Virus record (IMG/VR): IMGVR_UViG_2713896775_000011
Span: 1-10,681 of that record
Length of the DNA: 10,681 nt
Direction: 5' to 3' (one strand)
From: a virus
Taxonomy: Duplodnaviria; Heunggongvirae; Uroviricota; Caudoviricetes
Every line of letters begins with the position of its first letter. The first letter of the stretch is position 1. This document shows positions 1 to 9,492 of this stretch, piece by piece. Position numbers and translations under genes: made by a program. The notes beneath the pieces are model-generated. The model made no database searches and was not told where the DNA came from. It was given only the letters and a program-made list of their open reading frames with translations.

Positions 1-258
1 GGAGGCGTACCGAATATTGGCGATATCCGCATCACTGGTGGAGATGGAGGCGACGGTCAGTCCGGAAATATCGGCGTCAGCGGTGAAGGCGGAACATCGC
101 ACTGGGGCGGCGGTGGACGCGCAGGCGCTGGCGGTGGTGTTAGTGGTAAGGCATATGGTTCAGGTGGCGGTGGCGCATACGATGCCGGTTATAGCGGAAC
201 CAGTATGACAGGCGGGAAAGGTGCTGCTGGGATTTGTATTATCGAGGAGTTTGCATAA
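1..258 (+). CDS. Tail fibre protein, C-terminal fragment (5' end lies outside the window); glycine-rich distal region
   Basis: Frame 1 is open from the window edge to TAA at 256-258 and translates to GGVPNIGDIRITGGDGGDGQSGNIGVSGEGG...GKGAAGICIIEEFA. The stop overlaps the ATG of the downstream assembly gene (TAATG), the usual fibre/chaperone arrangement. Assignment rests on position and composition, not on a recognised motif. Confidence 0.5.
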   Translation, partial: GGVPNIGDIRITGGDGGDGQSGNIGVSGEGGTSHWGGGGRAGAGGGVSGKAYGSGGGGAYDAGYSGTSMTGGKGAAGICIIEEFA

Positions 259-668
259 TGAATGCGTCATATGCAGTTATTGAAAATGGGATGCTTGTGA
301 ATGTCATTGTCTGGGATGGCGAGGATGAATTCACAGTGCCGGATAATCAGCAGCTCATTAATATTTCTGATATCAGTGAGCATCCCGGAATCGGCTGGGC
401 GTATTCAGACGGGGGATTTACTGCGCCGCTCCCTCCGGAACGTTCTCATGATGAACTGGTAGCTGACGCTGAACAGAAAAAACAGTCGCTGATAGACGCA
501 GCAATGACCAATATCAGCGTGATTCAGTTAAAGCTGCAGGCCGGGCGCAAACTGACGCAAGAAGAAACTACCCGACTTAACGTTGTGCTGGATTATATCG
601 ACGCTGTGACGGCAACAGATACCAGCACCGCACCGGATGTCATCTGGCCTGAACTGCCGGAGGAGTAG
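258..668 (+). CDS. Tail fibre assembly protein (Tfa / P2 gpG-like chaperone), 136 aa
   Basis: ATG at 258-260 (the ORF track start at 234 is a TTG). The C-terminal half (...AEQKKQSLIDAA...TATDTSTAPDVIWPELPEE) matches the conserved Tfa C-terminal domain ending in a (D/S)TS-APD-I-WP motif; the N-terminal ~60 aa is divergent. Stop TAG at 666-668. Confidence 0.8.
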   Translation: MNASYAVIENGMLVNVIVWDGEDEFTVPDNQQLINISDISEHPGIGWAYSDGGFTAPLPPERSHDELVADAEQKKQSLIDAAMTNISVIQLKLQAGRKLTQEETTRLNVVLDYIDAVTATDTSTAPDVIWPELPEE

Positions 669-795
669 GCCATTCAATATCTGGCGCACTGGAGGTATCA
701 ACCAGCTCCAGTGCATCCAGATAATCCAGCCACAGATTAAACTGCACTTTTCATCATCAGGCAATCGTCCAGGCGCGAGCCTGGATGCTGGCATC
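640..795 (-). pseudogene. Remnant of a second, inverted tail fibre assembly gene (tfa'), 5'-truncated and frameshifted
   Basis: Minus strand 750->640 translates KVQFNLWLDYLDALELVDTSSAPDIEWPTPPAVQAR*, the canonical Tfa C-terminus. It is preceded by three in-frame TGA codons (759-751); an upstream Tfa-like segment (...LPDDEK) sits in another frame, implying a frameshift near 751-757. Its 3' end overlaps the + strand tfa by about 29 bp, convergently. Confidence 0.45.
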
Positions 796-827
796 TCTGC
801 CCAATTTAAATTTGAGAGGTAATTATG

Positions 828-1303
828 TTAACAGTTAATCCACCAGTATGTGCCGGGTGCCTGCGGGTAAGTGGCGGCGGCAACCTCGTGAACCATCCCC
901 CAATCCAGAGCTGTGGAGGCATTGGCTATGGTGGCGGCGGAGATAACCTCCTTCCACTCATTGCGGCTCTTACTGAGCTCAATCTGACTCTCCAAAATAT
1001 CGACAAAACGCTCCAGGTCATTATTGAGACACGCGCTCCACTCACTGACGCGTGAGTGATCCACGCTTGGGCCCATCAAGCCCCAGTGAAAAGGATGCAG
1101 TAAGAACCGACTCCCAGGATTCGCCTTACGTTCAGACCCTGCAAGAAAAATGATATTAGCGACTGATTCAACATTGCTAAGGTTATGGGTCTTTACTGGG
1201 ATTGGTAGGGCCTTTAGAAAGTGATAAGCAGTAAAACCTGCAACGAGGTCACCGCCCGGACTGGAAATGTAAATGTTTAACTCAGTCGCCCCCTGATTGA
1301 TAG
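828..1303 (-). pseudogene. ClpP-fold (Clp protease-like) serine peptidase, 5'-truncated fragment
   Basis: The minus-strand ORF contains NIYISSPGGDLVAGFTAYHF...VESVANIIFLAGSERKANPGSRFLLHPF...ALDWGMVHEV, which aligns with the ClpP core (YINSPGG...AG...Y...GQAASMGAFLLTAG...SRVMIHQP...EYGLVD), including the Ser and His positions. Only about 25 residues precede the SPGG motif, against roughly 90 in ClpP. The only in-frame start is a GTG at 1358 with no SD, lying inside the invertase remnant. Confidence 0.55.
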
Positions 1304-1543
1304 CTCCGAGAACTGATTGTTGAACGAACAAAAGCTGGCCTGGAAGCTGCTCGCGCACAGGGACGAATTGGTGGACGACGTCCCAAACTTACACCAGAAC
1401 AATGGGCGCAGACGGGTAGGTTAATAGCGGCAGGGGAATCGCGCCGGAGGGTTGCCATAATTTATGATGTTGGGATATCTACGCTTTACAAAAAATTCCC
1501 AGCGACCAGAGATAAGAATTCCGGCACGCATGGCCGGTTATAA
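1304..1543 (+). pseudogene. Serine-recombinase DNA invertase (Pin/Gin/Hin family), C-terminal remnant only; catalytic domain absent
   Basis: Frame 2 from 1304 (directly after TAG 1301-1303) to TAA 1541-1543 reads LRELIVERTKAGLEAARAQGRIGGRRPKLTPEQWAQTGRLIAAGESRRRVAIIYDVGISTLYKKFPATRDKNSGTHGRL. This closely matches the C-terminal hinge and HTH domain of Gin/Pin as I remember them. There is no start codon, and no frame upstream carries the N-terminal catalytic domain. Confidence 0.85.
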
Positions 1544-1628: not shown

Positions 1629-1650
1629 GCGGGCAATGGCCCGCTTTTCT
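1629..1650 (+). terminator. Rho-independent terminator-like hairpin (gcgggc-aatg-gcccgc followed by TTTTCTT)
   Basis: Perfect 6-bp GC-rich stem at 1629-1634 / 1639-1644 followed by a T-tract on the + strand. It lies just downstream of the invertase remnant and abuts the stop codon of U. Confidence 0.4.
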
Positions 1651-2099
1651 TATATCGAAAGGTTGGTTTTCACCAGAGAGAAGAGATCGTCGGTGGTGGT
1701 TTCAGCCAGCTTTTCCCGTATGTCCTCGCTTACCCGTTTCAGGTTGAGCGTGAAATCAATTTTCTTTGCCTTCCCGTCCTTAAAAAACTCCGTCCGGTTT
1801 TGCGTGATCTGCTCAATTACATACATGCCGTAGATCCTGCCCGTGCCTTCTATCAGGGGCCACGGGCGCCCGGAAAAAGCCATAGTTTCCAGCATGACAA
1901 GCGACACATCACCGCCGCTTATTTCGGGGTACAGCGTGCCGCTGAGTACGAACGGTTCTTCATCTGCGCCGATGAACTGATAGCGCGGGGATTTCCCCAC
2001 GCGATCGTTTTTGACGTGCCGCCAGGAGTTGGTTTTATTCGCACTCTGGTAAGGTGTGGTTTGCAGTGAAAAGGGGAACATCCCCAGAATCATCATCAT
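1650..2099 (-). CDS. U: Phage tail protein gpU (P2 U-like), 149 aa
   Basis: MMMILGMFPFSLQTTPYQ...SWRH...FIGADEEPFVLSGTLYPEISGG...RPWPLIEGTGRIYGMYVI resembles P2 gpU as recalled. It sits immediately downstream of the tape measure gene with a 9-nt gap and an AAGG SD. Confidence 0.85.
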   Translation of the reverse strand: MMMILGMFPFSLQTTPYQSANKTNSWRHVKNDRVGKSPRYQFIGADEEPFVLSGTLYPEISGGDVSLVMLETMAFSGRPWPLIEGTGRIYGMYVIEQITQNRTEFFKDGKAKKIDFTLNLKRVSEDIREKLAETTTDDLFSLVKTNLSI

Positions 2100-2108
2100 G
2101 ATATTGCC

Positions 2109-5054
2109 TTAGACGTGATCGGTCAGTTGGGAGCGCTTGCGCCGGTCGGCCTGTTGCTTCGCTAACGCAAGTTCTTCGCGCACGCGCCTGATAATGGTTT
2201 CTTCATCCAGTTTCTGGCCGCTAAAGTCGAAGTTAAGGTTATATACATCGCCACCCGGAGCAGGCATCAGCGCAGCGACGGAAGCCGCAGACGGAGACGC
2301 CGAAACAGGCATCCGTGCGGCGGGCTTCTCAACCTGCCAAGGCGTAACGGAAGCGATCAGCGATCCGGCCTGCTGCGTCACCCAATCCGTAAGGGATGGT
2401 AGCTGGCGCTGCGCCTGCTTAAGCGGTTCCGAATATCCGCCCCGGATCGGGATATAGGGCTGCTTATTCTTGAAGACGATTTCGCCGGGCCCGTCTTTCT
2501 TCTCCGTGGTATTGGTGGCGATCTTGTCCAGGCTGCTGCTCATCTTCGGCACGATGTTGGCCGGGCCCTTGAGCGAGTTAATTAAGCTTTCCTGCTTTTT
2601 CTGCTGGTCAATGGCCTGCTGTTGCTTCTGGTTGGTTTTCTTCTGCTGATCGTCTTTCGGCGACCAGTTCCAACCCTTTTTAACCATTTTCTTTTGCTGC
2701 GGATCCCACTCCCAGACAACAGGGTCTTTGTGCATACTTTCCGCAGCTTGCTGCGCTGCTTTTGTTGCGTCGGGGATGGCGCCGAGTTTCTCAAGTATCC
2801 ATCCAATCCCGTTAGCGACGGCTTGAATAGGTAGCGTCAGCGCGCTAATTGCGGCCCCTACAACCTTGCCGAACGTTTCCCCGGCACTGGTGCAGGATGC
2901 CAGCGCTTCACTGGAAAACTGGATCGGTTCCAGCAGTTTGGTAAACCATTCCCAGACCCCACTGATCGCGTTGCCGATACTGTCAAAAATCGGGGCCAGT
3001 GGTGCAAATACGGCGTTAAATGCCTGCGTGATTGGTTGAAGGCCAGTCATCAGGCCGGTAAAGAAGCCGCTGAAAAACGCCTGTATGGGTTGCCAGAATT
3101 TAATGACGGCCACTGCTGCCGCAGCAAAGAGCGCAATCAGCCCCCAGACGGGCGCAGAAATACCAGCCAGTAGAGTAATAAGCGGGCCGAATACCATGCG
3201 ACCGGCGCTTAATAATGCCTGCATAGGCGAGCCAGCAAGCCACTGGAACGCACCACCCAGGCGCATTACTCCGCCAGTCAGCCGCGCTATTCCTCCTTCC
3301 CCAGCCAGCGTGGTGAAGCTGAGGCGAACAAGTGCCATCGGGCCCAGCACTGCGCCGATGGACAGCATCAGGCCACCCACGACAACCAGCAACGCGCCTA
3401 TGGCTGCGGTGACTTTCATGATTGAACCAACCAGCGCCGGGTTTGCCTCAACCCAACGCCGGACGCTGCCAACCACCTTACTGACGGTAAGCATGATATC
3501 CATCAGCGGTTCGCGGAGCGTTTCCCCTGCTGAACTGAATGCGTTAACCGCGCCGGTTTTGGTCAGTTGCCACTGAGCAGAAAGGGAGGCTTTATTGATA
3601 TCGGATTCCCGATTCATGGAACCTTTAGCGGCAGCACCCTGCGTCAGTTCGATCTGGCGCCGAAGTTCGGGCAGGTTGTTCGCAAGTTTCTGTGCATCAT
3701 CCCCGAACTCTTTACCGAAAATCTGGGTAAGGTTGGCTACCTGCTTATCTGGTGCAAGTTTTTTGGACGCTTCCAGCACTGAAATGATCGTGCCCATCGC
3801 GTCCACTGACATGCTTTTCTGGACTTTCTCAGCATTGACGCCGATCTCATCCAGAGCACCCAAAAATTTATCGCTTTGTACTGTGGCGATCGACAGTTCA
3901 CGCACCATTGCATTGGTGGCGCTGGCTGCAACTTCGGCAGGTGATCCAAGCGTCAGAAAGGTGGAGCCCAGCGCGGCGGCTTGCTTGTAATCCAGTTGGC
4001 TGGCAAGCCCGCCAACGCGCTGGAGCACGTCGATAATATCGGAGCCTTTCGACTTCGCGTTATCGTCCAGGTAGTTTATGGCGTCGCCCAACTGTTCAAT
4101 ATTCTGGGTAGGGATTTTATACAGCCCGGCAATCTTACCGAGACTTTCAGAAAGCTGATCGGCGGGCAGTTCAAAGGCTACCGAAGCCTTTGCCGCCATG
4201 CTGGCAAAAGCCAGCAGATCGGCTTTTTGCTTTTGCCACGGATCATTGCTGTTTGCGACGCCCATACGCGCGCCACCTTCGACCAGTGCGGCATAGTCAA
4301 CAGCACCGTTTGCCATTGGCAGCTTTTCGCTGGCATCCATGATCGCCCGCTGCATTTCTTCATATTGCGGGGTGCGGTTGCCGCTGTCGTCACGCAAGCC
4401 GTTTACCTGTTTGGCTACGCCCTTCATTGCGTCTTCAAGGCTGCTGTAGGATTTAACCGCAGCGGCGACAGGTGCTAGGGTTGCCGCCCCTACTGCGGCG
4501 GTTTTCATCCCCCCGCTCATCATCTTTTCGCCGGTTTCTTTGGCGCGGCTGTAACGGGCCTGCGCCTGGTTAACAGCGTCAAGCCGTCGCTGCTGTTCGG
4601 CAAGCTGGCGGTTGTATTGCGCGGTGCGCTGGTTGATCTGTTCCGTCGCCCGGCTGGCGCTGCTGATCGCAATGCCTTCGCTGTAGAAGCTGGCCCGCAA
4701 CTGGTTAAGCTGCGTCTGCTCGCCTTTCTGCTGCTGGGTTAACTGGCGAATGGCTGCACGTTGCTGATTGAGGGCGGCAACCTGTTCGGCGCTGCGCTGG
4801 CGTAACGGGCCATAGGCCGCCGCCATTTGCCGGGCCTGTTCTTTCGCCTGGGCCAGTTGTTCGGTGGTTTTTTTATTGGCTGCGGTGAGGCGGTCAAAGC
4901 TGGTTGCCTGACGCTCAAGCCCTTTAATGCTGGTTTTAGTCTGGTTGATTTGAGACGCCAACGCGGCGGCACTCTGGCGCGCCGCGTTGACAGGGCGGGA
5001 CATATTATTCAGGGCGCTGAATGCCACCCTGATATTTAAATTGCGGTCTGCCAT
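2109..5054 (-). CDS. T: Tail tape measure protein (P2 gpT-like), 981 aa
   Basis: Long ORF in the T position between E/E' and U. It has a coiled-coil, Q/A-rich N-terminus, a central hydrophobic helix-rich segment and a K/Q-rich C-terminal part. ATG at 5052-5054 is immediately preceded by the E' stop; a GGAG-type SD lies upstream. Confidence 0.9.
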   Translation of the reverse strand: MADRNLNIRVAFSALNNMSRPVNAARQSAAALASQINQTKTSIKGLERQATSFDRLTAANKKTTEQLAQAKEQARQMAAAYGPLRQRSAEQVAALNQQRAAIRQLTQQQKGEQTQLNQLRASFYSEGIAISSASRATEQINQRTAQYNRQLAEQQRRLDAVNQAQARYSRAKETGEKMMSGGMKTAAVGAATLAPVAAAVKSYSSLEDAMKGVAKQVNGLRDDSGNRTPQYEEMQRAIMDASEKLPMANGAVDYAALVEGGARMGVANSNDPWQKQKADLLAFASMAAKASVAFELPADQLSESLGKIAGLYKIPTQNIEQLGDAINYLDDNAKSKGSDIIDVLQRVGGLASQLDYKQAAALGSTFLTLGSPAEVAASATNAMVRELSIATVQSDKFLGALDEIGVNAEKVQKSMSVDAMGTIISVLEASKKLAPDKQVANLTQIFGKEFGDDAQKLANNLPELRRQIELTQGAAAKGSMNRESDINKASLSAQWQLTKTGAVNAFSSAGETLREPLMDIMLTVSKVVGSVRRWVEANPALVGSIMKVTAAIGALLVVVGGLMLSIGAVLGPMALVRLSFTTLAGEGGIARLTGGVMRLGGAFQWLAGSPMQALLSAGRMVFGPLITLLAGISAPVWGLIALFAAAAVAVIKFWQPIQAFFSGFFTGLMTGLQPITQAFNAVFAPLAPIFDSIGNAISGVWEWFTKLLEPIQFSSEALASCTSAGETFGKVVGAAISALTLPIQAVANGIGWILEKLGAIPDATKAAQQAAESMHKDPVVWEWDPQQKKMVKKGWNWSPKDDQQKKTNQKQQQAIDQQKKQESLINSLKGPANIVPKMSSSLDKIATNTTEKKDGPGEIVFKNKQPYIPIRGGYSEPLKQAQRQLPSLTDWVTQQAGSLIASVTPWQVEKPAARMPVSASPSAASVAALMPAPGGDVYNLNFDFSGQKLDEETIIRRVREELALAKQQADRRKRSQLTDHV

Positions 5055-5515
5055 TTAGTGATCTCCACCACTGCGCGCAGCCGCCTGATCACGCCATAAC
5101 AGTATTTCCTGTACCGTCATGGCGTCCATCTCTACCGGCCGCCAGTGGAATATGACGGCGATATCTGCCATCAGGTCTTCTATGCGTTCGCAGGGGCATC
5201 GGATGATTCGTTGCCCGTATCCGTCGCGGTCAGATCCGAAGAGGGTTGCAAAAAATCAACCACCGCGTTGGCTAGCTGGCAAAAATCCCAGGTATCCATA
5301 CGGGCAATCTCATCGGCGGTTAGTGCCGGAGCGGTAACGCGGGGCAGCAGAATAACCAGCGCGTCATAGTTGGAAGTCAGCACGTCATAGGCTTTTAAGC
5401 CGCGCAGTGATCCAGCCTGTTTAAGCACGGAAGTGATCGCCACTTCGGTGATTTTGGTCTTACCGCGCGTAATAGGGGCGGTAAGAATAACGGTGTTTTC
5501 TTTGGTCTTGCTCAT
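5055..5515 (-). CDS. E': gpE+E' fusion product made by programmed -1 ribosomal frameshift (about 152 aa)
   Basis: The slippery heptamer TTTTTTG lies on the minus strand at + coordinates 5249-5255, inside E codons 88-89. The -1 frame from 5249 stays open for 64 codons (ATLFGSDRDGYGQRIIRCPCERIEDLMADIAVIFHWRPVEMDAMTVQEILLWRDQAAARSGGDH) and stops at TAA 5055-5057, directly abutting the T start codon. Confidence 0.7.
5180..5515 (-). CDS. E: Tail assembly chaperone gpE (P2 E-like), 110 aa
   Basis: MSKTKENTVILTAPITRGKTKITEVAIT...LRGL...ALVILLPRVTAPALTADE resembles P2 gpE. AGGAAA SD upstream; stop TAG at 5180-5182. Confidence 0.85.
   Translation of the reverse strand: MSKTKENTVILTAPITRGKTKITEVAITSVLKQAGSLRGLKAYDVLTSNYDALVILLPRVTAPALTADEIARMDTWDFCQLANAVVDFLQPSSDLTATDTGNESSDAPANA
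5249..5255 (-). promoter_or_regulatory. -1 programmed frameshift slippery site (TTTTTTG) for E/E'
   Basis: Heptamer read directly on the minus strand within E; its position near the E 3' end and the open -1 frame match the P2 E/E' and lambda G/GT paradigm. Confidence 0.65.
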
Positions 5516-5529
5516 GGTGCCGGGTTTCC

Positions 5530-6045
5530 TTATAGGCCGATGTTAGCGCGGTGTTTTTCCAGCACATCCACACCGGCAACTTTGTAGATCATGTTGAGCA
5601 CATCAACTTCGATAATCTCTTCGCCGTTGATGGTCAGCTTGTAATAGGTGTTTTTCAGGGTGTACTTATGCGAAGTGTCATCCCCGACTTTTGCCGAACC
5701 GGGATCCAGTTCAGTGAAGCGGCCACGCGTCTGGATTTCGCACGGTACAGCGTCGCCGGTTGCGTCGTCCTGATAGGAGCCAGCAAAACGTGTTTGCATC
5801 CCGTCCGCAGTGGTAACGCCCCATTTTTTCAGCAATCCGGCATCCAGACCGCCAAGCGTGATATCCATATCCAGGGCGCCAGCGTCGAAGCCAAGATCCA
5901 CCGCAACCGAACCCGGCATACCACCCGCCTGGTAGTCTTCGGTTTTTTTTGTGAGTTTGGCGGGGGTGATTTCCGGCACCATGCCGAAGTAGTTATCCCC
6001 GTCAAAGAACATATTGAAATATTTGAGTTTCTTAGGCAGTGCCAT
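5530..6045 (-). CDS. FII: Tail tube protein (P2 gpFII-like), 171 aa
   Basis: MALPKKLKYFNMFFDGDNYFGMVPEITPAKLTKK...RFAGSYQDD...LEKHRANIGL resembles P2 FII, including the ...HR.NIGL C-terminus. It lies 12 nt downstream of FI. Confidence 0.9.
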   Translation of the reverse strand: MALPKKLKYFNMFFDGDNYFGMVPEITPAKLTKKTEDYQAGGMPGSVAVDLGFDAGALDMDITLGGLDAGLLKKWGVTTADGMQTRFAGSYQDDATGDAVPCEIQTRGRFTELDPGSAKVGDDTSHKYTLKNTYYKLTINGEEIIEVDVLNMIYKVAGVDVLEKHRANIGL

Positions 6046-6057
6046 AAGCGCCCCCGG

Positions 6058-7251
6058 TTAGTTATTCACTGCGCTGGAAAACGTAGCGAAATATTCGTCG
6101 GTGAACTCCTGTACCAGGCTGAGATTTTCCAGCGGTGGAACAGGGGTGTAGTTGTACTTAATGGTCAGTTGACCATTGCGCAGGGTTTCCGAGGTATTCG
6201 GTTCCGGGTCATACCAGCAGCGGGCGCCCAGCAGCTTGCCAGCCGTCACATATGAGGTCAGCTTCTTATTGATGCCGTCCACAATGTCCTTAACCAGCGA
6301 CGGGGTAAGCGGTTTATCAACATAGGCGAAATGGGCTTCGGCGACGGTATCCGCAACGATCTGCGCGGTTCGGGTATAGCTTTCGAAGATATACGTTTCC
6401 GCGTCGCAGGTACGCGATCCCCAGATGCGGTAGCCGTCCTGCTTGATCAGCGTGGTAACGCCTGCTGCGTTCAGTTCGTCGGCGTCGGTATCGGTGCCCT
6501 GCAACGTGAAATAGATATCCCGATCCATCCCCAGCACGTTATTAACGGGCACGTTGGAAATGGTTTTATGCCAGCCCTGCGTTGCGTCGATTTTGGCGCG
6601 CATCCCAACAGCATGGGCACCCACGGGCACGGTGGCATTGGCCCCGGCGTTGGTGTCGTAGCAGATGAAATTAGGCCAGATAACCATCATTTCACGCTGG
6701 GAGAACTGTTCGCGGTATTCCTTCACTTCGGCGATTGTGTTGCAGCCGTTCGCAGCCACGTAAGCAAATGCGCGCAGCTTTTCGGCAATGACGCCGAGTT
6801 GTGCGGCTACCGCTTCCGTATCAAGCCCAGGAACAGCCAGTACACGCGGGCGCACGCCTACGCGCATTTCGGCAGACAGCAGCGCGTACATGCCGGTAAA
6901 GCGCCCGTTTGCATCGGTGCCGCCAATAACCAGTTGATCCTGTGTCTGTGCGGTACCGCCTTCTGGTGGAACAATTTTTGACGCATCGGCAACGCGGATC
7001 ACAATGGTTTGCGGGCTGGTCTGGTCTGAAATCGCTTTCAGGGTGGTAAACAGGGTGCCGGTTTTACCTGCCTTGCCCAGCATGTTAGCCACGCGGGTGA
7101 TCAGTACAGGGGTATCCAGCGGGAACGCTGTTTCGTCCGCATCATCAGCGGTGCAGACAACGCCGATCACCGCCGAATCAATGTCGGTGATCATCGTGCT
7201 AAGGTCGGTGGTTTCCGTGACGGTTACACCGTGATGGTAGTTAGTGGCCAT
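6058..7251 (-). CDS. FI: Contractile tail sheath protein (P2 gpFI-like), 397 aa
   Basis: MATNYHHGVTV...VIGVVCTADDAD...VPGLDTEAVAAQL...KLRAFAYVA...WHKT.SNV...YTPVPPLENL matches P2 FI (MSDYHHGVQV...) along its length as recalled. GAGG SD upstream of ATG 7249-7251. Confidence 0.9.
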   Translation of the reverse strand: MATNYHHGVTVTETTDLSTMITDIDSAVIGVVCTADDADETAFPLDTPVLITRVANMLGKAGKTGTLFTTLKAISDQTSPQTIVIRVADASKIVPPEGGTAQTQDQLVIGGTDANGRFTGMYALLSAEMRVGVRPRVLAVPGLDTEAVAAQLGVIAEKLRAFAYVAANGCNTIAEVKEYREQFSQREMMVIWPNFICYDTNAGANATVPVGAHAVGMRAKIDATQGWHKTISNVPVNNVLGMDRDIYFTLQGTDTDADELNAAGVTTLIKQDGYRIWGSRTCDAETYIFESYTRTAQIVADTVAEAHFAYVDKPLTPSLVKDIVDGINKKLTSYVTAGKLLGARCWYDPEPNTSETLRNGQLTIKYNYTPVPPLENLSLVQEFTDEYFATFSSAVNN

Positions 7252-7408: not shown

Positions 7409-8527
7409 ATGGACACGACAGAAAACCGATATTCGCCGCGCCCGGCGTTCAGTATTGAAATTGAAGGTAATCAGCTTACGGCGCTGGATAACCGGCTGAT
7501 CTCCCTTTCCCTGACAGATAACCGGGGCTTTGAAGCGGACACGCTGGATCTGACTCTGGATGATGTAGACGGGCAGGTAGCATTACCATCACGCGGCGCA
7601 AAGATATCGGTGGCGCTGGGCTGGGATAATGATCCATTGGTTTTTAAGGGCGTCTATACGGTTGACGAGATCGGACACGCCGGCCCGCCTGACCAGCTAA
7701 CGATCAGTGCCAGAAGTGCAGATTTCCGCGATACCTTCAACGTGAAGAGGGAATATAGCTGGCACGATATTACCGTGGGGGATGTGGTCGCCAGCATTGC
7801 CAGCCGCTACGATCTGCGTGCGGGTGTCAGCGAAGAACTGGCGAAGATTGAGATAGACCACGCCGATCAGACGAGTGAATCAGATATCAGCTTCTTAACG
7901 CGCATGGCCGAAATGCTGGGCGCGGTGGCAACCATTAAAAACGGTATGCTTCTGTTTATCACGCCGGGCAAGGGAGTGACGCAAAGCGGCAAGCCGTTGC
8001 CGGTGATCGAGATCGTCAGGTCAAGCGGTGATAAACATCGGTTTAACGTAGCTGACCGCGACGCGTACACGGGCGTAACTGCATACTGGCTTGATCTCAA
8101 CTTTGGCAAAAAACCATCCACTACCGTGAAGAAAACCACCCGCAGACGACGAACCAGCCAGGCCAAAAAGAAAGAGCCCGCATCAAGCAAAAAAGAGGGT
8201 GATTATCTGGCCGGGGCCGAAGGTAACGTTTTTGTTATCCGTAAAACCTTCAAGACGGAAAAGGCGGCGAAGCGGGCCGCTGCGGCTAAGTGGCGGGAGT
8301 TGCAGCGTGGAGCGGCGACGTTCAGCATCACCCTGGCGCGTGGCCGCGCGGATTTGTACCCGGAACAGCCTGCCAGCGTCTACGGCTTTAAGTCCACGAT
8401 CGACAGTGGGAACTGGACGATAACGCGGTGCGTTCACGATATTGGCGGGGGAGGGTTTACCACATCGCTGGAACTGGAAGTAAAAATCGACGACTGGACA
8501 GCGGAGAGTGACGATTCAACGTCTTAA
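7409..8527 (+). CDS. D: Phage tail/late protein gpD (P2 D-like), 372 aa
   Basis: MDTTENRYSPRPAFSIEIEGNQLTALDNRLISLSLTDNRGFEADTLDLTLDD... is characteristic of the P2 gpD family. AAGGGG SD 5 nt upstream of the ATG. Confidence 0.9.
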   Translation: MDTTENRYSPRPAFSIEIEGNQLTALDNRLISLSLTDNRGFEADTLDLTLDDVDGQVALPSRGAKISVALGWDNDPLVFKGVYTVDEIGHAGPPDQLTISARSADFRDTFNVKREYSWHDITVGDVVASIASRYDLRAGVSEELAKIEIDHADQTSESDISFLTRMAEMLGAVATIKNGMLLFITPGKGVTQSGKPLPVIEIVRSSGDKHRFNVADRDAYTGVTAYWLDLNFGKKPSTTVKKTTRRRRTSQAKKKEPASSKKEGDYLAGAEGNVFVIRKTFKTEKAAKRAAAAKWRELQRGAATFSITLARGRADLYPEQPASVYGFKSTIDSGNWTITRCVHDIGGGGFTTSLELEVKIDDWTAESDDSTS

Positions 8528-8575
8528 GCGTTATACTTGCGTTGATATTAACCAGTCCTGAAAGGAGGCCCGCGT

Positions 8576-8818
8576 ATGGCAATGCGCTGTCCTCGCTGCC
8601 GTGCAATAGCAAAAACCAGAACCAGCGTTGAGCTGAGTTTGCTTGTACGGCGCAGCTATCACCAGTGTCAAAATATGTTGTGCGGGTACTGTTTCACCAG
8701 CATGACGGAAATAGACGGTTCACTAAATCAGACCCAGCCAGCGCCCGGCGCGATGGTGCCACAAGAAGCTTTTCCACGAAGTCACCACGGCGAAGATCAG
8801 TTATCGCTGGCATTATAA
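8576..8818 (+). CDS. ogr: Ogr/Delta-family zinc-finger late-gene transcriptional activator, 80 aa
   Basis: MAMRCPRCRAIAKTRTSVELSLLVRRSYHQCQNMLCGYCF has the Cys-x2-Cys...Cys-x4-Cys Ogr signature and resembles P2 Ogr (MFHCPLC...RYHQCQN.NC). Strong AAAGGAGG SD 7 nt upstream. Confidence 0.85.
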   Translation: MAMRCPRCRAIAKTRTSVELSLLVRRSYHQCQNMLCGYCFTSMTEIDGSLNQTQPAPGAMVPQEAFPRSHHGEDQLSLAL

Positions 8819-8820
8819 AA

Positions 8821-8850
8821 GCGGCCCCTAAATGGGGCCGTTATTTATTT
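8821..8850. terminator. Bidirectional rho-independent terminator shared by ogr (+) and the convergent membrane-protein gene (-)
   Basis: gcggcccc-taaa-tggggccg hairpin followed by TTATTTATTT on the + strand and by CTTTTA on the minus strand. The minus gene's stop codon (8845-8847) lies inside the T-tract. Confidence 0.6.
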
Positions 8851-9492
8851 CATGTTTATGGCTACAAACCTTGATCGTGTAAGGTTTTCACTTAAATATT
8901 GATCGCCACTATCCCCGGCCTTTTTGCCCCAGATATCACACGAAGATTCACCGCCCTGAAAAACGTAGCCTTTGGTTAAAATGTCGTTAGTCACATAAAT
9001 ATGATCGAATAAACCAGCCTTCCAAGCCCTGTTAGATTCCCCGTGATTGAAATAGCTGATGCATACGGACTGAACGGCACTTTTCGCCTGTAGTTCTTCT
9101 ATGCTGTCAAAATTGAATGCAACTACTAAGGCTTTGTTGTAAATGACTGGTTTAACTGTGAGATTCAGATCTCCGAGCGCCTTGGATAAGGCAAGGGGAA
9201 GTTGATTAGTCGCTTCTGAAAAGTCGATAGTGGTTGTTAATTGTTCTTTGGGTTTAGCCGCGGGTTGTGTTTGTTCTGTGTTTGTCACTGCTGGCTGGGG
9301 TTTATTTTCAGCAACAGCTTTCGGCGCGACTGGTGCAACCATTGAACCTATGATTGCTGCCAAGAGGCACACCCCGAAGTAGATAGCAGATGAGCGCTTT
9401 CGATTTGGCATAAAAACCCATTTGGGATTGATTAGCCCAACCCAAAAAGCGATCCCAGCAACAGCGGCGATAACGGTGATGATTGTTTCCAT
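8845..9492 (-). CDS. Hypothetical membrane-anchored protein, 215 aa (two predicted N-terminal TM helices, Pro/Gln-rich linker, globular C-terminal domain)
   Basis: ATG at 9490-9492 with a GGAGGG SD 7 nt upstream. Hydrophobic segments IITVIAAVAGIAFWVGLI and AIYFGVCLLAAIIGSMVAPVA. The DNA looks clearly AT-richer than the flanking tail genes and fieF (by eye). No family recognised. Confidence 0.6.
   Translation of the reverse strand: METIITVIAAVAGIAFWVGLINPKWVFMPNRKRSSAIYFGVCLLAAIIGSMVAPVAPKAVAENKPQPAVTNTEQTQPAAKPKEQLTTTIDFSEATNQLPLALSKALGDLNLTVKPVIYNKALVVAFNFDSIEELQAKSAVQSVCISYFNHGESNRAWKAGLFDHIYVTNDILTKGYVFQGGESSCDIWGKKAGDSGDQYLSENLTRSRFVAINMK

Follow-up and report, generated by a model that had tools for sequence, protein, structure and literature searches.

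The window analysed here is a stretch of 10,681 nt that comprises the tail half of a P2-like prophage, and its right end adjoins the host gene fieF (Table 1). At the left end, the 3' end of a tail-fibre gene is followed by a tail-fibre assembly gene. The counterpart of this fibre gene on the comparison contig L001 (2433-3659) is labelled by PGAP as a glycine-rich domain protein, and its version on contig L043 is a 631-aa Phage_tail_fib/Gly_rich_2 protein. The next feature, tfa', is the remnant of a second, inverted assembly gene. PGAP describes its L001 equivalent (4041-4177) as a frameshifted tfa without N-terminus, and an inverted repeat (587-604 / 713-730) is located between tfa and tfa'. 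Hence, tfa' is a leftover from an invertible host-range segment. Further to the right lies what remains of a serine DNA invertase. Its catalytic domain is absent, and the HTH_7 match corresponds to the resolvase helix-turn-helix. In E. coli CX12 the invertase remnant is longer and is annotated by PGAP as 'recombinase family protein', with an internal stop and a missing N-terminus.

The tfa' and invertase remnants flank the ClpP-like ORF on which our study is focused. Therefore, this ORF is set in a decayed invertible tail-fibre cassette (tfa, inverted tfa' remnant, invertase remnant), at the boundary between gene G and the tail module. A preliminary description of the same DNA had assigned the ORF to a tail-fibre accessory locus. 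The ORF does lie beside the fibre-assembly gene, but its immediate setting is the decayed cassette, which is also found in e14-like prophages. The whole arrangement of tfa, tfa' remnant, short ClpP gene and invertase remnant (252-1543 in the window, 3743-5291 on contig L002) is 95-97% identical between P2-like and e14-like E. coli prophages. Apparently, an invertible host-range cassette, now frozen, was transferred between tail modules that are unrelated. In this cassette, the short-ClpP gene occupies the place where the alternative fibre exon would be expected.

Table 1 Features of the window around the ClpP-like ORF and in the tail module
Feature	Position	Strand	Basis or remark
Tail-fibre gene, 3' end, glycine-rich C-terminal domain	1..258	+	Gene extends beyond the left window end
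Tail-fibre assembly (chaperone) gene, gpG/Tfa-like	252..668	+	Pfam Caudo_TAP, E 2.6e-21
tfa', remnant of a second, inverted tail-fibre assembly gene	640..776	-	PGAP on L001 4041-4177
Native part of the short-ClpP gene, codons 24-183 and stop; Ser72, His95, Ala149	828..1307	-	CX12 comparison, Pfam CLP_protease, relationship to 9UXT
Junction of the 374-bp deletion, 1 nt microhomology	1307	.	Left and right match ends against L001
Non-native 5' extension of the ORF, ~16-17 codons from the GTG	1308..1358	-	No counterpart in the intact protein
Serine DNA invertase (Pin/Gin/Hin type), C-terminal remnant, 78 codons	1307..1543	+	Pfam HTH_7, E 9e-13
P2 gpU-like tail gene, other edge of the cargo slot	1650..2099	-	PF06995 Phage_P2_GpU on the identical L043 gene
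Tape measure	2109-5054	-	
Tail assembly gene	5180-5515	-	
Tube	5530-6045	-	
Sheath	6058-7251	-	
gpD	7409-8527	+	
Ogr	8576-8818	+	

Two other features of the window deserve a comment. The sheath, tube, E, tape-measure and U genes (1650-7251, minus strand) are opposite in strand to the fibre genes (1-668, plus strand) and to D-ogr (7409-8818, plus strand). In P2 itself, all these genes run in one direction. The same FI-U strand arrangement is observed in CX12 and in P2-like prophages of Enterobacter, so the inverted orientation is a lineage trait; a search for inverted repeats on either side of this block that could account for it found none. In addition, a 215-aa ORF with a hydrophobic N-terminus (8845-9492, minus strand) is located at the prophage end, between ogr and fieF. 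Neither Pfam nor PADLOC gave a match for it, its only counterparts in PHROGs, phrog_3403 and phrog_3807, are of unknown function, and it may be another cargo gene.

The ClpP-like ORF extends exactly from 828 to 1358 on the minus strand and encodes 176 aa from a GTG start. It matches Pfam PF00574 (CLP_protease) with an E-value of 3.3e-12 and 47.1 bits, for a gathering score of 20.2, and this significant profile match confirms the ClpP fold that had been proposed from the letters of the sequence. Residues 20-161 of the ORF cover profile positions 42-180 of 182; therefore, the N-terminal quarter of the domain is missing. The ClpP and ClpP-related models of NCBIfam gave sub-threshold matches only, the best being Clp_rel_HeadMat (NF045542, 48.4 bits for a cut-off of 120). 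Residues 17-176 are 100% identical to residues 24-183 of an intact 183-aa protein, WP_016244976.1, and ORF residues 65, 88 and 142 correspond to Ser72, His95 and Ala149 in the numbering of the intact protein, which is used below. By sequence and fold, the fragment belongs to peptidase family S14, without the triad aspartate and without the N-terminal docking region. Antisense to the ClpP remnant, the plus strand has a 76-aa glycine-rich ORF with an ATG start (825-1055). As the minus-strand frame is the one conserved in homologues, this is most likely a shadow ORF.

Comparison with related prophages explains the missing N-terminus. Megablast of the window against 5426 complete E. coli genomes retrieved the same prophage, at 99.7-99.8% identity, in strains CX12, CX08, PO06101 and N2512, where 1475 bases of the record match 1101 bases of the query. 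CX12 has the ClpP-like gene in complete form, as a CDS of 552 bp that encodes WP_016244976.1, and about 110 bp separate it from the longer invertase remnant. Positions 1-1307 of the window match L001 3402-4708 (98%), and positions 1307-2200 match L001 5082-5975. Relative to CX12, the window thus lacks 374 bp; the two sides of the deletion meet at base 1307, with one base of microhomology. The loss takes in codons 1-23 with the ATG, the ribosome-binding site (AAGGAG), all intergenic DNA upstream of it and a piece of the invertase remnant. This agrees with the earlier remark that the ORF has no N-terminus and only a GTG start, which is not the native one. Upstream, the window reads ...CCAATTCGTCCCT-GTG and the intact CX12 allele AAGGAGATAGTG-ATG; no Shine-Dalgarno sequence precedes the GTG at 1358, and a sequence scan of the minus strand upstream of the ORF found weak terminator-like hairpins only and nothing promoter-like. 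The deletion joined codon 24 of the short-ClpP gene to the antisense strand of the dead invertase gene, and the first 16 residues of the ORF are, as read from the sequence, an accidental translation of that strand.

The remaining 480 nt show 0/480 differences from the intact CX12 allele, which indicates that the loss is recent and that the allele persists through recency, not selection. The gene is full length (552 bp) in all its carriers among the complete genomes (26 of 5426). In draft assemblies, at least seven contigs encode the truncated protein between gpU and the fibre-assembly gene, as in the window, so that the deletion is inherited and recent and not an assembly artefact; GCA_021541255.1 is one assembly with the deletion allele. 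In these draft assemblies, gene callers annotate the 176-aa GTG ORF as a CDS. The AlphaFold model of the intact protein places strand β1 of the core at residues 2-7 and the first helix at residues 13-28; the window copy lacks this strand and most of helix 13-28. With the start signals, strand β1 and most of the first helix gone, the window copy is a pseudogene, and very probably non-functional. Overall, the likely source of the ORF is a cargo gene, solitary in prophages, that encodes a 183-aa short ClpP of the PpClpP1 type (see below) and of which the 3' 87% is left; our confidence in this is good.

We then turn to the intact protein. A phmmer search of WP_016244976.1 against solved structures gave chain A of 9UXT (183 aa, 'Clp protease') as the best match with an E-value of 9.8e-38; other ClpPs were at 4e-09 or weaker. 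9UXT is ClpP1 of Pseudomonas plecoglossicida (PpClpP1; PMC12900304). The AlphaFold2 model of the intact protein (pLDDT 92.8, pTM 0.88, from a 29-sequence alignment) has the ClpP α/β fold with a handle helix at 108-132. Foldseek ranked 9uxt_A first for this model, with a TM-score of 0.92, and canonical ClpPs were at ~0.82. Hence, the structure prediction called for in the preliminary description also returned a ClpP fold, and the full-length homologues proved to be paralogues of ClpP rather than fibre domains.

By alignment, Met1 of the intact protein falls at about residue 39-40 of the E. coli ClpP precursor, and the N-terminal axial loops, which in ClpP gate the pore and are the docking site of ClpX/ClpA, are absent. 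Ser72 and His95 are the counterparts of Ser97 and His122 in mature E. coli ClpP. The first two positions of the catalytic triad are therefore kept, as had been stated earlier. The catalytic aspartate of E. coli ClpP (RDR motif) aligns with the second alanine of an AAT motif, Ala149. The aspartate is indeed missing, but the histidine previously suggested in its place is, by alignment, this alanine. In short, the Ser-His-Asp triad of ClpP is reduced to Ser and His, with Asp replaced. Across an alignment of the family, the serine is found in 298 of 299 sequences and the histidine in all 299. The third position is A, S, G or T in 57 of 58 enterobacterial relatives and Pro in 110 of 120 Pseudomonas sequences, and is highly variable in other groups. 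The intact allele thus has the characters of the PpClpP1 type: 183 aa, a truncated N-terminus, Ser and His, and a non-acidic third residue.

When 1.84 billion cluster representatives were searched exhaustively with phmmer, 578 clusters were returned at E-values up to 1e-10. Among the matches listed, most are ~180-195 aa long and align from query residue ~3-7; short ClpPs therefore constitute a sizeable family. In PHROGs, the protein matches phrog_94 'head maturation protease' (E 1e-27) over positions 111-256 of a 622-position profile. Since PHROGs groups it with head-maturation proteases, its evolutionary origin could be a prohead protease domain. Three pairwise comparisons between intact copies gave dN/dS values of 0.06-0.09; distant homologues were saturated and closer pairs were used instead. 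Judging from these ratios, the intact copies are under strong purifying selection.

We sampled about 13 genomic contexts in Enterobacterales and Chromobacterium. A scan of contigs with back-translated patterns retrieved only 6 loci, the patterns being narrow, and look-ups of the exact proteins were relied on. All contexts are prophages (a prophage or a tailocin for Chromobacterium), and the short-ClpP gene is always alone. At least seven different insertion slots are used, in P2-like, e14-like, P22-like, lambdoid and Mu-like prophages. In P2-like prophages of E. coli and Enterobacter, the gene lies between gpU and the fibre-assembly gene, and in e14-like prophages of E. coli it lies in the same tfa'/invertase-remnant cassette as in the window. 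In E. coli 100416, whose prophage has a Mu-like tail, it is inserted at the prophage end between a fibre gene and DinI/HumD genes. In phiv205-1 and EC.P3, the latter inferred to be P22-like from its matching gene layout, the preceding gene encodes an 82-aa RHH protein of the Arc/Mnt type and is divergent from arc-ant; the short-ClpP gene overlaps its stop codon. The same pair of small ORF and ClpP gene is found in PhiR12_1, with a lambda-like tail, beside an antirepressor gene and inserted between tail genes K and L. Lambdoid prophages of Klebsiella and Leclercia carry the gene between the lysis cassette and the terminase genes, and those of Proteus carry it beside the N gene. Finally, it is positioned between the tape measure and a DNA-circulation gene in Pantoea (Mu-like tail), and between lysis and fibre genes in Chromobacterium.

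In most contexts, the short-ClpP gene is antisense to the flanking phage genes. In the P2-like slot, it is on the same strand as gpU, downstream of it, and converges on the fibre-assembly gene. No recurrent partner gene was found near it across the sampled contexts, and in none of them does it adjoin portal or capsid genes; the intact CX12 locus contains only cassette remnants around it. The conserved neighbours that were to be looked for beside full-length homologues did not appear in these contexts, and the idea that the fragment derives from a multi-gene 'system' fails, the intact gene being solitary in every sampled context. On the other hand, the view that it is a relic of a cargo gene located just after the tail-fibre assembly gene, foreign to the P2 tail, is borne out. 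The preliminary description had also presented the Z/fun locus as a published anti-phage hotspot of P2-like prophages. The published hotspot is the gpA-gpQ (old/tin) locus next to cos; in the preprint of Rousset et al., it is gpA-gpQ, not Z/fun, that is the P2 hotspot, Z/fun is mentioned only as variable, and Clp is not mentioned.

Several copies have neighbours of interest in their own right. In phiv205-1, EC.P3 and the lambda-like-tailed phage, the start codon of the short-ClpP gene overlaps the stop of the 82-aa ORF (L003 4705-5489; same coordinates on L004 and L005). On L003, this ORF is the Arc/Mnt-type gene divergent from arc-ant, and the overlap suggests translational coupling with a maintenance repressor. 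A SocA/Panacea-domain ORF is found just downstream of the short-ClpP gene on the same contig (6133-6408). The E. coli 100416 copy, 88% identical (L047 5001-6408), adjoins cargo genes of the DinI family and HumD (UmuD-like), which modulate the SOS response. LexA and UmuD' are turned over by ClpXP, and this turnover may be relevant to the copy beside the DinI/HumD genes. A cargo-rich lambdoid prophage of the Klebsiella type with a short-ClpP gene (L023 13375-16387) has, in addition, a colicin gene and a trio of genes for a methyltransferase, a ParA-like ATPase and SIR2_2. In Pseudomonas, the short-ClpP gene is chromosomal, among metabolic genes. There, the PpClpP1-family gene (L027-L034, ~6001-6552) is consistently flanked by genes for KGG-repeat stress proteins and by a DUF6555 gene. 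This hints that the Pseudomonas short ClpP could belong to a stress regulon, a link not discussed in the 9UXT paper (PMC12900304).

Four other explanations of the ORF were weighed. Translation from the GTG at 1358 could still yield a functional protease, or else a subunit that binds ClpP and regulates it, given that the frame is open and annotated as a CDS in draft assemblies, that Ser, His and the handle helix are kept, and that the truncated allele persists in several isolates. Against this, the deletion took away the original start together with the AAGGAG and everything upstream, and the GTG lacks a Shine-Dalgarno sequence; strand β1 and most of helix 13-28 are swapped for 16 unrelated residues; all 26 complete genomes that bear the gene retain the full 552 bp; and the lack of any substitution attributes persistence to recency and not to selection. 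We consider a working product very unlikely. A chance ORF antisense to the 76-aa plus-strand ORF (825..1055), or else a tail-fibre or fibre-chaperone domain, would suit the location inside a tail-fibre cassette and the glycine-rich frame on the other strand. However, the ORF aligns end to end with ClpP, with invariant Ser and His, and homologues at 50-90% identity keep the minus frame open over ~180 aa with dN/dS below 0.1, which leaves such a reading a practically negligible probability. The Pfam, phmmer, Foldseek and dN/dS results refute it.

The two remaining alternatives concern what the intact gene was. That the ORF is what remains of a ClpP-type head-maturation (prohead) protease displaced to the tail region could be argued from Clp_rel_HeadMat being the best NCBIfam match, from the phrog_94 match at 1e-27 and from one phage GenBank record that labels a homologue so. 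Yet the NCBIfam score reaches 48 bits for a cut-off of 120, the phrog_94 match is limited to positions 111-256 of 622, full-length homologues of ~180 aa have no scaffold domain and never lie beside portal or capsid genes, and a cellular paralogue of ClpP is the nearest relative among solved structures. Moreover, Leclercia prophages (L040-L042) have, in addition to the short ClpP, a separate ClpP-type protease of 282-284 aa between portal and capsid; therefore, the short ClpP is not their head-maturation protease, and such an origin for the window ORF is extremely improbable. Some of the slots would be compatible with the protease effector of a multi-gene anti-phage system whose partners were lost here: in model phages they are used by exclusion genes, namely downstream of mnt (sieA in P22), between lysis genes and terminase, and beside N. 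But the contexts that we sampled share no recurrent neighbour, only cassette remnants surround the intact gene in CX12, and neither the window ORF nor five members of the family had any match to PADLOC-DB 2.0.0 models at E-values up to 1. There is, in our estimation, only a slim chance that such a system existed.

The reading that we retain, a pseudogene of a solitary cargo gene, raises the issue of what the intact gene does. It is, from its sequence contexts, a moron: solitary, in variable slots of unrelated phages and oriented independently of the flanking operons. A prophage gene that is solitary, under selection and found in varied slots would be kept by temperate phages for its effect in the lysogen. 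The intact gene would then be expressed from the repressed prophage, and we regard lysogenic expression as somewhat more likely than not, in view of the gene orientation and of its apparent coupling, in P22-like phages, to a gene that takes the place of mnt; P22 lysogens make Mnt. Against this, a simple scan found no sigma-70 consensus promoter upstream of the intact gene.

By analogy with PpClpP1, 14 subunits would assemble into a ClpP barrel devoid of the N-terminal gate and of the ClpX-docking loops, with Ser72-His95 active sites that have no acidic third residue. Such a gate-less barrel could be a weak, ATPase-independent peptidase. Alternatively, the protein could co-assemble with host ClpP and change the output of ClpXP/ClpAP in lysogens; that it works through mixed rings is a tentative idea, somewhat short of an even chance. 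The analogy is with a protein that is ~40% identical, chromosomal, and has Pro instead of Ala at the third position. The sieA- and bor-type slots suggest exclusion of other phages or tuning of lysogeny/stress regulators as possible effects, and exclusion as the actual benefit appears unlikely. Taken together, it is doubtful, yet conceivable, that the enterobacterial branch is a partner-less, lysogen-expressed supplier of gate-less subunits that enter or replace host ClpP rings and re-tune ClpXP/ClpAP. If subunits do enter the rings, the prophage could benefit through superinfection exclusion or through control of lysogeny/SOS regulators. The gene would then define a new single-gene class of phage-encoded modulators of a host protease, absent from current defence catalogues, and the window copy would be a recently inactivated example.

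The short gate-less ClpP is a protein type described in 2026, with a sequence already annotated in RefSeq, and it was characterised purely as a chromosomal Pseudomonas paralogue (PMC12900304). Our analysis adds that a sister branch of the PpClpP1 type is carried by many kinds of temperate phages of enterobacteria as a cargo gene that stands alone and is strongly conserved, in places where model phages keep exclusion and conversion genes. A search for phage-borne or defence-related ClpP found no relevant paper or defence-database entry, the 9UXT paper being the sole relevant one (PMC12900304), and this widespread phage-cargo branch appears undescribed in the searched literature. As the window locus holds only a decayed gene, its direct value is a correct annotation: 828..1358 is a pseudogene, not an 'ATP-dependent Clp protease subunit'. 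The locus itself is a case of routine decay, a dead copy, and is valuable as a lead to a phage-borne ClpP paralogue. If the phage gene tampers with the host ClpP machinery, it would offer a testable new route of phage-host manipulation.

Comparison with known systems places the intact protein closest to PpClpP1. The latter lacks the N-terminal helical/axial-loop region and has a 'triad' made of Ser73, His96 and Pro151. It forms a homotetradecamer with an axial pore of 42.7 Å and has weak peptidase activity, for which Ser and His are needed and Pro is dispensable. It does not bind ClpX, and with canonical ClpP2 it forms a mixed tetradecamer that degrades substrates faster in the presence of ClpX (PMC12900304). 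Like the intact phage protein, PpClpP1 has 183 aa, begins ~25 residues into mature ClpP without axial loops, and has the same Ser and His positions with a non-acidic third one. However, the two are only 39-41% identical, with Pro151 in one and Ala149 in the other. In addition, the PpClpP1 gene is chromosomal in Pseudomonas, whereas the enterobacterial branch is prophage-borne and the window copy is also truncated.

Canonical E. coli ClpP (S14) has the same fold as the intact protein (TM ~0.82), belongs to the same Pfam family and aligns at Ser97/His122. In contrast, identity is ~19-21%, the RDR motif with Asp171 is replaced by AAT, and the N-terminal gate/docking region is absent in the intact protein. 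The head-maturation proteases (NF045542, phrog_94) share a homologous protease domain with the short ClpP and both are phage-borne, but the short ClpP has no scaffold or C-terminal extension, scores below the cut-off and lies outside head modules. Finally, the likeness to the morons sieA of P22 and bor of lambda is positional only, with no relationship in sequence or fold. The same slots are used: orf59a-sieA occupies the slot downstream of mnt in P22, and bor lies between Rz and the terminase genes in lambda. Most short-ClpP copies in such slots are solitary and antisense to their neighbours.
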